Shown: positions 45,027-64,000, numbered from the stretch's first letter. The stretch is 64,000 nt of DNA from Dictyostelium discoideum (GCA_000004695.1 CM000151.3:3552001-3616000), one strand, 5' to 3'. Program-made: numbers and translations. The notes: generated from the letters alone by a model not told the origin.

Positions 45027-48000
45027 ATGAAATTATTTGAAAAGATTCAAGTTTTAATTTTAATATTTGTTTCAAATTATTATTTTATAAAATTTTCAAA
45101 TTGTCAAATAATTAATATTTATGATTTATCAAATAATAATTCGTATATTAAACATCCACAATCCACAAATTCCTATGCATGTAAATTCGAGGTTTATTTA
45201 CTTTTCAATGTTAGTCAACAGGATATTGGAAATGACCATTTGGAATTATTTTACAATGATCCAATTGTTACTTTATTAGATGTCCTTGTTTCAAATTCAA
45301 GTATCCTTTCTTTAATGTCATTGCAAGGCGATCCTGGATACATTGGAGTACAAGTTTTTAGTAGATTTTCTTTAAATCATTCAATTAATAACAGTATTAG
45401 CCTTAATTTTATATGTCAAGGTAATCATTTTTATTTTTTCTTTTTTATTTTATTTTTATTTTTATATTTTAAAAAATTACTATTTTACAGATTCTAATAA
45501 AAAAAAAAAAAAAAAAATTTTATTTATTTTTTAGCAATTGATTACACTAAATTGGATTATAAGTTAATGGTTAATAATAGATTTAAAAGATCAACTTCAA
45601 ATTATGGAGGTTATTTACAATTTACTTCAGAATACCCTCTTGGACAATTAGAATATTCAAGTAATACCAGTGGGGTTTTATCAAATACCATCGAGAATAC
45701 TGCAAATCTAGCAGGTGGATCTTTGATGTATAACTTTAGAGATAATTTATCAGTTTCTGTAAATTTTGTAGGAATATATAATAATAGTATCTATATCGAG
45801 TATCCCTCATTATATTATACCAGTATGTATTTATTTTTAATTGTTATTATTATTATTATTATTATTATTATTATTATTATTATTATTATTATTATTATTA
45901 TTATTATTATTATTATTATTATTATTATTATTATTATTATTATTATTATAGTTATTAACTTTTTTTTTAGATATTGATGTAAATTCAAATAATTCAATAG
46001 TAACTATGTATCCAAATCAAGTAACACAATATAATGAATTTGGGTTTGGATGTCCACCTCTTTTTACTATTACAATTAATAGAACAACTGACGAATATCA
46101 ACCATATTTTTATGTTTCTTTAATAAACGGTTTGGGTACTGGTAATATTCAAATCTATCCTTTATATGAAATTAATAAAATGGCAACATATATTGGTATG
46201 TTTGATGGTGCAGTAACTCCATCATATTATACTCTATTTTCTCAATCTGATAATTCTCTTACTGAAATCTATAAAGTTGAAAATTTAACTGTAACCAGTA
46301 AGTTTATTTTTTGAAAAATTAAAAAAAAAAAAAAAAAAAAAAATTAATATTAAAACACACAAACTAATTAATTAATAATTTTAGAATTAAAAAAACAATC
46401 TTTTTCAACTGTTGTTATTGCAACTTATTTACATGGTAATAATGAAACGTTATACAATTCATCAATGTATACAATTTCATTCAATAGTGGTATTTTAAAG
46501 CAGGTTGATTTTTTCCCAACAGTTTATCGTTTCCAATCATCATCATCTGTAATTTTAAATTGGCCATTTGGGTTTGAAAGTGGTCAGAATTTTAATTTCA
46601 ATTTTAAATCATCACATCTACAAAATTTATTTTCAATCAATAGCATAAGCTCATTTACCACCGATAAAAACATTTCAACTACTGTACAATCAGATATAAA
46701 GAGTAATTTTAACAATATTAAAATTAAAAAAATCATTATGATTAATTTTTTAATTTTTACTAATTTATTTATTTTTAATATTTTTTTGAAAATGTAATAG
46801 TAACTCCACAAGAACCATTTAATGTCCAACTTTTAAATTTTGAATTATTTTATCTCTTTAATGATAATTATTTGTTAAGATTTAAAATAAAAAAAAGTTC
46901 ATTTGATTATTTTATAGCACTTAAAGGTTTTTCAAATATTTTAAGGTATGAATCAATTGTAGAAGAAGATAATGAAGTAGTGGTTTTTGAAACAGTTTTT
47001 GACTTTTTTAAAAATTATGGGTTAGGAAATTTTTACATTTTCGATTCATTAAATAGAATGAAAAGTTATTTAGTTAATAATTATTATTCAACGGACCCAC
47101 TTGCAAAATATTCAGAACCATCAGAGAATTTAAATAATTTTTTAATTGAAAATGTATCATTCAAGTATAACTATATCGATGTAACAAATAAATCAGCAAC
47201 AAATGTAATTTACTTTAATTATAATGGTACAATTGATCCAAATAGATTACCTTATTTTTATTTAACTGATACAGTATCCTATAGTGATATTAGTAATATT
47301 CAATATGATTCAATAAGATATGCAATATGGAATTCTACACTTTTAAAATACCAAGTTGAATTTACAATACCAGCAAATATCCAACCTGGTTCAGTTCCTT
47401 ATTTAATAATTTTAAATTATCGTTCAAAATTATCAAGTGAATTCTTACCATTGTCAGCACAATTATTTGTAACATCAGAAAGTAAGTTATTAAATTTCTA
47501 ATAATAATAATAATAATAATAATAATAATAATAATAATAATAATAATAATAATAATAATAATAATAATAATAATAATAATAATAATAATAATAATAATAA
47601 ATTATTACTTTTTTAAAATATCTAAATATCTTATTTTTGTTTTTATTTACTACTATTTAGATTATGATGGATATGGACCAATATTTAGTAATATTGAAAA
47701 GGTTAATTCAACAAATGAATTTGGTTGGAAATTTACAATAGATGATCCAATTAATGGTTTTGATTATGCTGATATTATAGTTAGAGGTGAAATGGATAGT
47801 TCAACTTATAAATTTCATTTAACAACTCAAAATTTAACAAGAGGTGATAAATTTAATGGTGATTATCAAATTAATATCACTATATCAAGTAGATGTGCAT
47901 CTCAAAATTATATTATCACACAAGTTAAATTATATGATACTCAAGGTAATGCTTGTAGATTTTCAGTATCTGAATCATTTAGTGGTGGTATTAGAAATCC

Positions 48001-61045: not shown

Positions 61046-64000
61046 TCAGTTCATTTTTTGTAATTTGTTTTGTACTTTTCTTTGGAACAAAACCGATTTT
61101 TTGTTTTTCACAACCAAGTAAACAACTGATACAATAACTACAGTGGCAAAAGCAACGGAACCAATAATAATACCAGCGAGTTGAGCACTTGTTAGTTTTG
61201 ATTTATTTGATGTACAAATTGAATTATTATCATTATTTGATACTGGTTTACTATCTACTAATACTGAAAAGTCTGGATCAATAATTATTGATTGTTTATA
61301 GTTTGGTATTGTAATACCAATGAATGATTGTGATACTGATGATGTTTGAACTGAGTTCATTTTTGAATCTAATAATTGATTTTCAATTGAAGATACTTTT
61401 GAATCGATGATTGCTCTTTTAATGAATCTACCATAAAGTGAATGGTCATCAATTTGAATTTTAAAGAAGTTTGAATTATCACCATCGCTTGTATCTCCAA
61501 ATTCTTTTAATGAACAAGTATCTTTGGAAGTTGATGATTCGAATAATGCTGACATTACAAGTTGAAGACTATTTAATTGATTTAAAAATTTATATTCTGT
61601 AATTTCAATTGTATATTTAATACTTGATGGATTCATTGTTATATTATTATTTGCGAATTGAATGATTTTTGTTTGATTGAACCATTCTAAAGTTACAGTA
61701 ATATTAGTTATTAATGGATTTGTTGATTTTGTATCACCACTTTGGATACTTGTAAAGTATTGACTTTTAATATTATTAATTGGTGTATAAATCCATTTAT
61801 CAAATGTATATAAATTAACTTGATTCGAATTAAAATCTAATTCTCTTAATGATACAATTGAAATCAATGATTTGAATAAATAATTTGTACTATTTGATGT
61901 TTGATTATTGTTATCGATAATTGGTAATTCAGTTGATGGCTGTGATGTATTTGTTGATGGTTGTGGTATAATTATAACTTGTGAATTACAATCATTACCA
62001 ATCCAAGGTGGATAACAAATACATCCACTTGGCGAACAAAAACCTTGTTTTGATCCACCACATACTGGTTCACCTAAACATGTTTGTGGTTTATTCGTTG
62101 GTATTGGTGATGATGTAGGTATTGGTGTTTGTGTTGGTGTTGGATCTATAAAATTATAAACTATTGGATTGACAGTGAATTCATTTGATGTGAGTGGTAG
62201 GTCTGAAACTTTGATAATGAATGGTTTATCAGTTGGTTTAATATTTTTAATAAACATTGCACTCCAATAAACTGTAGTTGGTACTATTATTTGATTAAAG
62301 CTTGAGTCTCCTTCATATTTTACATATACTTGTTGCGTTGAATTGAAACATCTACCTGTTATCCATAACTCGCTATCAAATGAATTAAATTTACTGCATT
62401 TTGTGATTTGTATTACTTTATTAAAAGCTATATTATTAATTGTATATATAAAAGATAAATTATTTAGTGATTCGCTTGAATATCCGCTATAATAACCGCC
62501 ATTATTAATGAATCCATAAACACTGAAAATAATATCTGAATTGTATCCAAATCCTATTGGTAAATTGATGGTACATGTATAGGTTGCAGCTGTTTCGTTT
62601 ATTGAAATAATAGATGATACACATTCAAGTGTTTGTGCTTCTATTGTTTGAATGTAAACAATTGGATATTGTTTATCTTTTAAACCACTTTCAATATCTA
62701 CTGCTTCAAAGTTGAATAATAAATATTGAGTACCATCACTATTTTGTCTTAATATTGGTATGAATGAAGTTAAAATTGGTGGTGAACTATCGATACCATC
62801 ATTTTCACCACTACATGTTTTATATACTTTATTTATTGTTGGATCTGATAAATAATTTATAAATACATTTTTAATACCATCTATTCCATTAACTACTGAA
62901 AATTCACCTGAATAACCTTGAGTATCATATAATTTAACTTGTGTGATAATATAATTTTGAGATGCGCATTTACTTGGTAAAGTTATATTAATTTGATAAT
63001 CACCATTAAATTTATCACCTCTTGTTAAATTTTGAGTTGTTAAATGGAATTTATAAGTTGAACTATCCATTTCACCTCTCACTATAATATCACCATAATC
63101 AAAACCATTAATTGGATCATCTATTGTAAATTTCCAACCAAATTCATTTGTTGAATTAACCTTTTCAATATTACTAAATATTGGTCCATATTCATCGAAA
63201 TGTTTAGAAACAACTATTAGTTGTGATGATAAAGGAAACATATCATTTGTTATTGCTCGAAAACCACACCATAAAAAGAAACTGAGTGGACCAGGTCTAG
63301 TGTTTGCAAGAACTGTAAATTTAATTTGATATTTTGAAATTGTTGAATTCCAAGTTGCAAACTTTAAACTATTGAAATCTATATTAGAATCTGTGGTATT
63401 ACTATTTAAAATAAAAAGTGAGAATGAAGCTGAAGGATTACTATGGGTTTGAGTACCATTATAATTGAAATAAATTATATTATCAACTGATTTATTTGCC
63501 ACATCAATATAATTTTTTAAAAATGTAATATTTTCTATTAAAACAGGTAATATTGTTGGAGCTTTATAATCTATAACTGAAAATGGATTAATTGAAAAAT
63601 AACTATTTAAATAATAAACTTGACTCTTTTTAAAAGTTGAATCTCCAATAGATAAAAATTGAAAACCACGCCCTTTAAAATCATAAACAATTTCATATAT
63701 ATTATTTTCAGCATCTACCAATGATTCTTGTCTATATATTCCATTTGCATCATCATCATTAATTTGAATGAAAAGATTATAACCAATCTCTTTATATGTT
63801 GGTTTTATTTTAATTCTTAATAAATGAAATTGTTCAAAAAGGTATATAACTTTACATGATTCTAATTCTAATGGTAGTAATGATGAATTTATTGCTATAT
63901 TTAAAAATATTTTTTAATGTTAGTAATTGTTTTGAGTGTGTGTGTGTTGTTCGGTAGTAGTTTAGAATATTAATGATTTTATATGTGTATATACTTACTA
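61046..64000 (-). CDS. T-family copy T3 (reverse strand), 3' part: fused exon 5+6 (61046 to about 63905) with the upstream exons beyond the window end
   Basis: ORF 61046..63721 is 891 aa. The frame continues to an acceptor aatatag at about 63905 (..ESCKVIYLFEQFHLLRIKIK..). It reads ...SSQLIVVSKHFDEYGPIFSNIEKV... straight through the position where T1 and T2 carry the microsatellite-containing intron 5. The C-terminal 400 aa are near-identical to T1 (same EGF knot, TM and tail VKNKKSVLFQRKVQNKLQKMN). Confidence 0.6.

Follow-up and report, generated by a model that had tools for sequence, protein, structure and literature searches.

Gene conversion confined to two segments as the probable cause of mosaic divergence among three surface glycoprotein paralogues of Dictyostelium discoideum

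A 64,000-nucleotide stretch of chromosome 2 of Dictyostelium discoideum AX4 (hereafter, the window; G+C content ~20%) carries three paralogous genes, T1 (+ strand), T2 (− strand), and T3 (− strand), which are strongly diverged over most of their length and nearly identical in two segments. The first, tract A, corresponds to the DUF7035 domain, and the second, tract B, extends for ~1 kb from an EGF-like domain to the transmembrane (TM) helix. We consider it probable, at about 85% for the explanation as a whole, that T1, T2, and T3 are old tandem paralogues encoding type I membrane glycoproteins, that no member of their family has so far been found outside Dictyostelium, and that their mosaic was generated by interlocus (ectopic) gene conversion reaching only these two segments. 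Gene conversion or concerted evolution on part of the gene had been suggested in an earlier note made from the DNA alone, and it is borne out by the grouping of tract B by genome, the grouping of its flanks by orthology, and the collapse of synonymous differences within the tracts.

Gene models and the two homogenised tracts

The three genes were confirmed at the coordinates given in the earlier note. The six-exon model of T1 agreed at every residue with the AX4 protein XP_644336.1 / EAL70411.1 / EAL71088.1, annotated as "EGF-like domain-containing protein", in an exact protein look-up. The gene models are as follows.

45027..49879, + strand: T1 gene, six exons (45027-45420, 45535-45822, 45971-46297, 46385-46702, 46801-47481, 47661-49879), 1408 amino acids (aa); splice model and exact AX4 protein match
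54161..58989, − strand: T2 gene, six exons (58989-58599, 58520-58242, 58115-57801, 57721-57419, 57261-56539, 56397-54161), 1415 codons with an internal nonsense codon
54935..54937, − strand: in-frame TAA of T2 (DFNSN*VNLY), the nonsense codon
61046..63894, − strand: T3, part inside the window, with exons 5 and 6 fused and intron 5 absent

All three genes encode the same kind of protein, T1 and T2 being convergent and T2 and T3 being arranged head to tail. The exon layout, described earlier as common to all three, is shared by T1 and T2 in intron positions and phases, but not fully by T3, in which intron 5, the 3′-most intron (T1 47482-47660; T2 56398-56538), is absent (63190-63200), as it also is in the T3 orthologues of strains ACTFIR (L001 3262-7800) and ACTFIW (L003 from 21669). 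Intron 4 of T3 occupies 63895-63998, and the remainder of T3 and a fourth family copy (T4) lie past the window end. Introns 2 and 5 (45823-45970, 47482-47660, 56398-56538) contain long runs of the (ATT)n/(TAT)n type, which read as poly-Ile, poly-Tyr, or poly-Leu open reading frames (ORFs) and give many spurious blastn matches between and within the genes.

The nonsense codon of T2 is private to AX4, CAA being present at this position in all six other copies compared (T1 and T3 of AX4, T1–T3 of ACTFIW, and T3 of ACTFIR). It would deprive the predicted product of the TM helix and of the greater part of the supersandwich domain. Otherwise the gene appears intact, splice sites included, and the T2 orthologue in ACTFIW is an intact gene of 1393 aa.

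The tracts were located as follows.

47672..48094, + strand: tract A in T1 (DUF7035), 142 codons
55961..56386, − strand: tract A in T2
62771..63190, − strand: tract A in T3
48784..49893, + strand: tract B in T1 (EGF-like DUF7949, ComC supersandwich, TM helix)
54246..55275, − strand: tract B in T2
61032..62141, − strand: tract B in T3

Tract A comprises ~425 nt that are 93–96% identical between the paralogues, and it starts ~10 nt after the intron-5 acceptor or site in all three genes. What had been taken for two short islands of identity in the 5′ part is this one tract, which contains a small variable patch. Tract B, of ~1.0–1.1 kb or ~317–330 codons, runs from SPIPTNKPQTC into the TM helix (T1 48784-49794). 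A near-identical 3′ block is therefore present as described earlier, but it is shorter than the 1.2 kb and 400 aa then estimated, and its copies are 96–97% identical rather than identical. Pairwise alignment located sharp identity breakpoints, with the start of tract B at T1 48784, and gave the following blastn matches.

T1 48762-49794 and T2 55275-54246: 1034 nt, 96.4% identical, five gap openings
T1 48784-49893 and T3 62141-61032: 1110 nt, 96.6% identical, gapless
T2 54246-55239 and T3 61131-62124: 994 nt, 97.3% identical, gapless

At the 3′ side, the identity between T1 and T3 runs through the TM helix to 14 nt past the stop codon, but T2 leaves the common sequence inside the helix (at T1 49794) and has a different cytoplasmic tail. 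At the 5′ side, each tract B match is directly preceded by ~1 kb at 80–85% identity; further 5′, no blastn alignment was obtained except for simple repeats, and introns 1–5 could not be aligned between T1 and T2. The interior of tract B is patchy, different pairs being identical in different sub-segments, and its AX4 copies differ at 28–38 substitution sites, each with its own pattern.

The amino acid identities between paralogues were as follows.

Head (exons 1–5): 35–38%
Tract A: 86–92%
Between the tracts (mid exon 6): 45–51%
Tract B: 96–97%

The heads are thus more diverged than the earlier estimate that about half of the residues differ in the 5′ parts, since about two-thirds of them do so in exons 1–5. 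In a codon alignment, the proportion of synonymous differences (pS, Nei-Gojobori) was 0.36–0.70 over exons 1–5 and mid exon 6, compared with 0.00–0.15, mostly ~0.04, inside the tracts (0.04–0.12 in tract A), so that divergence along the genes is far from the uniformity that the earlier note had named as a refutation. The longest identical runs were 151–210 nt, compared with at most 69 nt in column shuffles, and neither these runs nor the best 1000-site window was reached in any of the shuffles (0/2000 per pair for each). Low synonymous divergence inside the tracts, saturation outside them, and abrupt edges between the two, as observed here, are what interlocus gene conversion would produce.

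Exchange since the lineage split and its footprints

The orthologous loci were compared in two further assemblies, both labelled D. discoideum, namely, ACTFIR (L001, L004, and the control region L002) and ACTFIW (L003), and trees and identities were determined with three copies each from AX4 and ACTFIW and with those copies that were available from ACTFIR. In neighbor-joining trees, the middle region grouped strictly by orthology with 100% bootstrap, orthologues being 93–99% identical and paralogues 64–68%, and tract A also grouped by orthology with 99–100% bootstrap. Tract B, by contrast, grouped by genome, with bootstrap values of 98–99% for T1, T2, and T3 of AX4 and of 80–85% for T1 and T2 of ACTFIW. 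Its AX4 paralogues were 96.5–97.2% identical, compared with 95.0–96.2% for the AX4–ACTFIW orthologues. Among the informative sites in the 670 nt common to five sequences, 8 backed the split by genome, 3 or fewer any alternative, and 2 the orthology of T3. The grouping of tract B by genome and of the flanking coding sequence by orthology indicates interlocus exchange in tract B after the lineage split. Taken together, these results indicate that tract A was already homogenised when AX4 and the ACTFIW/ACTFIR lineage separated, and that tract B was exchanged between loci after their separation. Elsewhere, the genes underwent no exchange for a very long time and are now stable one-to-one orthologues.

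The DNA of ACTFIR and ACTFIW is ~6% diverged from that of AX4 (window 12000-44600; L002, L003, and L004), that is, the flanking DNA is ~94% identical. Nine linked neighbour genes had a synonymous divergence (dS) of 0.06–0.11, around 0.09, between AX4 and the divergent strains, and an unlinked family member was 94% identical in protein between AX4 and a divergent strain. At another family member, strain ACTFIT matched AX4 at every aligned residue, with one gap of 20 residues. The mean gene diversity in D. discoideum is 0.003, with extreme values for tgrB1/C1 (bioRxiv 10.1101/2025.10.22.684067), and given a divergence of ~6% against this mean, ACTFIR and ACTFIW look like a separate lineage.

A comparable mosaic was found in D. 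purpureum, in which three tandem family members, Pa, Pb, and Pc, lie at 5302-18488 of GL871087.1 (L005). The 5′ 1720 nt of Pa are 97.3% identical to Pc and its 3′ 1047 nt are 96.8% identical to Pb, the junction being located within the EGF-like domain. In a fourth gene (966-2936), no domains other than EGF and ComC_SSD are present. A similar pattern was observed in the pair P0013/P0014, and other pairs on the same contig show the same mosaic at the protein level. Because these pairs and the L005 genes share the mosaic, exchange of the EGF–supersandwich–TM module is a recurrent property of the family beyond AX4.

Single events have also left footprints in the cluster.

49899..49968, + strand: T2-type relic (TM end and cytoplasmic tail, ..RKWKDDKFVKMFNRKLKKL), in the 3′ untranslated region (UTR) of T1, in frame after the stop codon
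53749..53919, + strand: inverted 171-nt fragment of T2 exon 6, just 3′ of T2, 89% identical to 55516-55352
51702..53750, + strand: rearranged segment of ~2 kb with broken ORFs, between T1 and T2 in AX4

The T2-type relic in the 3′UTR of T1 indicates that a T2-type 3′ end was overwritten by one of the T3 type, and the presence of the relic also in ACTFIW (L003 14724-14804) indicates that this event is old. The rearranged segment in AX4 adjoins the 171-nt T2 fragment and has ORFs of 85 and 140 aa compared with a 490-aa exon in the other strains. In ACTFIW and ACTFIR, this segment is inverted relative to AX4 and is found upstream of T1 (L003 6543-9169), where it forms a 774-aa gene. In ACTFIW, the stop codons of T1 and T2 are ~233 nt apart, so that the convergent genes form an inverted repeat of ~1 kb, whereas the spacer at this junction is 4.3 kb in AX4 owing to the rearrangement. 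Both ACTFIR contigs end at the start of tract B, L001 in T2 (at 13707) and L004 in T1 (at 13645), and this assembly break was likely caused by the inverted repeat, which is also a plausible hotspot of exchange.

Under the proposed mechanism, tract B (EGF-like domain to TM helix, ~1 kb) would have been copied among the loci since the lineage split. Its 5′ edge coincides with the indel-rich Ser/Thr/Pro linker, whose length and sequence vary from copy to copy, and its 3′ edge with the end of homology, either in the TM helix or in the 3′UTR. Tract A has its 5′ edge at the intron-5 site and would have been homogenised before the split, and everything outside the tracts has diverged to synonymous saturation. 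The tract limits may thus be set by heterology in the linker, the intron, and the UTR, the simplest reading of the edges being that heterology blocked heteroduplex extension. The homogenisation itself could have followed simply from proximity and homology, without having been selected for.

Several points weigh against this explanation or restrict it. The comparison covers three genomes in two lineages, and the split by genome is unrooted; it indicates exchange in at least one lineage and fixes neither which lineage nor the number of events. The tract B paralogues are still ~3% apart, which points to infrequent exchange, and the last event could have been a single one. In D. purpureum, the C-terminal module of Pc differs, so that the copies do not all share one, and part of the pattern there is one-off chimera formation rather than steady homogenisation. 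Furthermore, the tracts are not enriched in GC, the GC content at third codon positions (GC3) being 0.05–0.11 in the tracts and 0.09–0.15 outside. Enrichment by GC-biased conversion is common in converted tracts, although not obligatory. GC-biased conversion was dropped as a candidate for these genes because GC3 is not raised in the tracts.

Architecture and distribution of the protein family

Pfam scans of T1 gave the following domains.

Residues 672-801: DUF7035, 128 bits (cut-off 27)
Residues 812-927: DUF7034, 98.7 bits (cut-off 27)
Residues 1065-1099: DUF7949 (EGF-like), 54.3 bits (cut-off 27)
Residues 1119-1338: ComC_SSD (supersandwich), 65.9 bits (cut-off 24)

The same result was obtained for T3 and for the part of T2 exon 6 that is 5′ of its stop codon, and all three genes accordingly belong to the family recognised by DUF7035, DUF7034, DUF7949, and ComC_SSD in that order, each above its gathering score. 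A further domain, DUF8390 (PF28405), is on record for the T1–T4 orthologues of ACTFIR and ACTFIW between DUF7034 and the linker; it had no match in our scans, in which the Pfam copy apparently did not contain that profile. The first 670 aa of T1, that is, the head of ~640–670 aa, gave no Pfam match. The profile searches proposed in the earlier note therefore recovered the EGF-like domain, as DUF7949, but neither IPT/TIG nor classical Ig domains, no classical Ig Pfam domain being matched in the T proteins. IPT/TIG (PF01833) was absent at E <= 1 in the exon-level scans and at E <= 0.01 when full-length T1 and the first 766 aa of T2 were scanned, whereas the same profile matched other ComC_SSD proteins and hence does work in this genus.

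The description as single-pass surface glycoproteins was also supported. Hydrophobic N-termini, where visible, and a C-terminal TM segment (AGIIIGSVAFAAVVIV..) with a short tail correspond to a predicted type I topology, a signal peptide is predicted, and N-x-S/T sequons number 20–35 in T1–T3 (28–35 in full-length T1 and T2). An AlphaFold2 (AF2) model of the part encoded by exon 6, built with 31 sequences, had a mean predicted local distance difference test score (pLDDT) of 74.5 and began with three beta-sandwiches, the third at the position of DUF8390; a disordered linker joined these to a small EGF-like unit, after which came a large sandwich and a long TM helix (692-737). Its best fold matches in the PDB, by Foldseek, were tandem FN3/Ig arrays, and a family-profile search of PDB sequences gave no match at E <= 0.1. 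The likely layout would thus begin with a signal peptide, a head of ~640 aa, and three Ig/FN3-like beta-sandwiches (DUF7035, DUF7034, DUF8390), continue through a disordered Ser/Thr/Pro linker to an EGF-like domain and a ComC-type supersandwich, and end in a TM helix with a short tail. Such proteins may act as cell-surface adhesion or signalling receptors with an interchangeable shared stalk and anchor module.

An exhaustive HMMER search with the N-terminal 644 aa found only 18 representative clusters among 1.84 billion proteins. All ten that were looked up by name were from group-4 Dictyostelium, namely, the D. discoideum complex, D. firmibasis, D. dimigraforme, and D. purpureum, and no species outside group 4 yielded the long form with its N-terminal region of 640 aa. 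A word-indexed homologue search missed T1's own AX4 protein and most orthologues and gave a single match for the low-complexity N-terminal query. Absence from its lists is therefore no evidence, and the members that it missed were recovered by exact look-ups and the exhaustive search.

It had been stated that the proteins could not be placed in a named family. T1 is in fact annotated in AX4, and Pfam covers its architecture: it is a member, without any difference, of the "EGF-like domain-containing proteins" with DUF7035-DUF7034-DUF8390-DUF7949-ComC_SSD. Other members (XP_636932.1/Q54JJ9, XP_637496.2/Q54L67, and DDB_G0282707) resemble T1 in domain order, in the long form of ~1350–1420 aa, in the signal peptide, and in the single TM helix. 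The family is functionally uncharacterised, in keeping with the earlier suggestion: a search of the available literature library found nothing on it, on its accession numbers, or on ComC together with lagC, the only relevant papers being those on tgr, and no expression or mutant data were found. ComC ("communication mutant C"), the namesake of ComC_SSD, has a role in developmental signalling. T1–T3 match the Pfam profile of this membrane-proximal supersandwich above its threshold, with E values of 1e-17 to 5e-18, but their N-terminal two-thirds (head, DUF7035, and DUF7034) are not ComC-defining, and the likeness detected is that of the shared domain.

A parallel in evolutionary pattern is with the clustered vertebrate protocadherin variable exons, which are likewise tandem, single-pass, and of the adhesion type, with a homogenised membrane-proximal part and diverse distal ectodomains. 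Conversion among clustered protocadherins reportedly homogenises the membrane-proximal ectodomain, the TM segment, and the cytoplasmic part (Noonan et al. 2004, Genome Research). The proteins and lineages are unrelated, however, and the T genes differ in having no spliced-on shared constant exons and in a tract that ends at a low-complexity linker.

Alternative explanations, neighbouring genes, and implications

Purifying selection alone, under which the stalk and TM module would be far more constrained than the head without any exchange of DNA, could account for the better conservation of the C-terminal module across species (T1 shares 47–68% identity with other species in region C and 26–38% in the middle region) and for the ratio of nonsynonymous to synonymous divergence (dN/dS) of 0.15–0.25 in tract B. 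It does not explain why synonymous differences collapse as well (pS ~0.04 versus 0.4–0.6), why the tract edges are abrupt at the nucleotide level, or why paralogues within a genome are closer in tract B than orthologues between genomes, and a module that is only 47–68% identical between species is not intrinsically invariant; we regard this explanation as very unlikely. It is just as improbable that whole genes were duplicated recently and that the heads then diversified very rapidly under selection, leaving the 3′ part as an unmodified remnant. The 3–4% divergence of tract B would fit such a history, as would dN/dS values of up to ~0.9–1 in a small number of 100-codon windows when orthologues are compared, but the synonymous sites of the heads are saturated, introns 1–5 of T1 and T2 cannot be aligned, and the heads are stable one-to-one orthologues across lineages (93–99% identity, dN/dS 0.23–0.44). 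The three loci predate the lineage split, whereas tract B is younger than it. One-off formation of chimeras by unequal crossing-over or by exon or domain shuffling, with each gene gaining the common 3′ module once, has in its favour the relic tail in the T1 3′UTR, the clean two-parent chimera Pa, and the occurrence of the EGF–supersandwich–TM module, at ~50–62% identity, on proteins with other N-terminal parts (TIG- or MRH-containing). Since the relic tail predates the AX4/ACTFIW split and tract B still groups by genome, later exchange must have taken place too, and the patchy site patterns within tract B fit several short events; as a full account, it is therefore unlikely. An assembly collapse or duplication artefact in the reference, which the earlier note had named as a possible refutation, is extremely improbable. 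In ACTFIR, each of the two contigs does break off precisely where tract B begins, which indicates that the repeat is hard to assemble, but the three AX4 copies differ at their own substitution sites, two independent assemblies of other strains show the same arrangement, ACTFIW assembles T1, T2, and T3 contiguously with the same structure, and the annotated AX4 protein is the T1 model.

The earlier note had likened the genes to the tgr allorecognition family, and a corresponding explanation is that the ligand-facing heads are kept polymorphic by balancing or diversifying selection for allorecognition or kin discrimination while the stalks are homogenised. As in the Tgr family (TgrB1/TgrC1), the T proteins are single-pass beta-sandwich surface proteins encoded in a tandem cluster with a pseudogenised member and gene fragments, and interlocus gene conversion or recombination has also been reported among tgrB paralogues (bioRxiv 10.1101/2025.10.22.684067); dN/dS of ~0.4 also exceeds that of most neighbouring genes. 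The T proteins differ in being ~500 aa longer, in having another C-terminal module, and in having no IPT/TIG domain matched in the Pfam scans, and the T genes do not include a divergently transcribed ligand–receptor pair. Nor is there excess divergence between strains. T2 and T3 compared with ACTFIR had dS of 0.10–0.11 and dN/dS of 0.41–0.43, and the orthologue dS of 0.10 is at the neighbour background of 0.06–0.11; the unlinked member is equally diverged, and there is thus no sign of ancient alleles. Against ACTFIW, dN/dS by region was 0.12–0.44 except for one window with 10 substitutions, and it was below 0.5 in every region with adequate counts. The values of 0.23–0.44 in the variable parts indicate that purifying selection is relaxed there, and they do not point to diversifying or balancing selection. 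This test of strain divergence covers two lineages, polymorphism within D. discoideum sensu stricto being outside its reach, and the analogy with allorecognition is unsupported rather than disproved; we consider it quite unlikely. Hyper-polymorphism, considered in view of 89.7% aa identity between T2 and P0028, was dropped because ACTFIR is diverged from AX4 everywhere that was looked at (neighbour dS ~0.09). Gene conversion limited to two segments is thus the explanation that we retain.

Among the neighbouring genes, one exon between T2 and T3 belongs to the family of calcium-dependent cell adhesion molecules.

60459..60695, + strand: Dicty_CAD (cell-cell adhesion domain) exon, E = 3.5e-29

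Dicty_CAD genes are also interleaved with the T genes in the other strains (L001 8066-9184; L003 20947-21358), AX4 and ACTFIW each having a single such gene between T2 and T3 and ACTFIR having two. Two ORFs of 253 aa lie ~40 kb upstream of the T genes, 4412-5173 (coding 4412-5170), which is exactly discoidin I chain A by exact protein look-up, and 6586-7347, which had no exact sequence match in the protein collection searched. The segment 22169-22852 encodes DDB_G0272570 / DDB_G0273939 by the same look-up. The genes looked up in the window have two accession numbers each, which fits the duplication of chromosome 2 in AX4.

Segment-limited gene conversion in this cluster is clear but ordinary, and it represents a fresh and tidy instance of a known evolutionary process: clean, well-bounded conversion that stops at domain boundaries in a surface-protein family of a protist, with a pattern that recurs in two species far apart within the genus. 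It also has practical consequences, in that the 3′ kilobase of these genes is unusable for orthology assignment, short reads cannot be reliably mapped to it, and long-read assemblies break where two copies are convergent. This study further draws attention to a family of large surface proteins that is uncharacterised and has so far been found in Dictyostelium alone. With its interleaved Dicty_CAD genes, and lying ~40 kb from those for discoidin I, the cluster could reasonably be chosen for work on developmental or adhesion genetics. Known biology is unchanged unless the heads prove to be recognition determinants. There is an outside chance that the genes form a second recognition system with variable heads and a common stalk in Dictyostelium, in which the EGF–supersandwich–TM module would be kept interchangeable through a common partner or hetero-oligomers, each head would have a ligand of its own (for example, on other cells, on prey, or in the matrix), and module exchange would be selected. 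If this were true, the exchange of modules in D. discoideum and D. purpureum would be selected rather than incidental.

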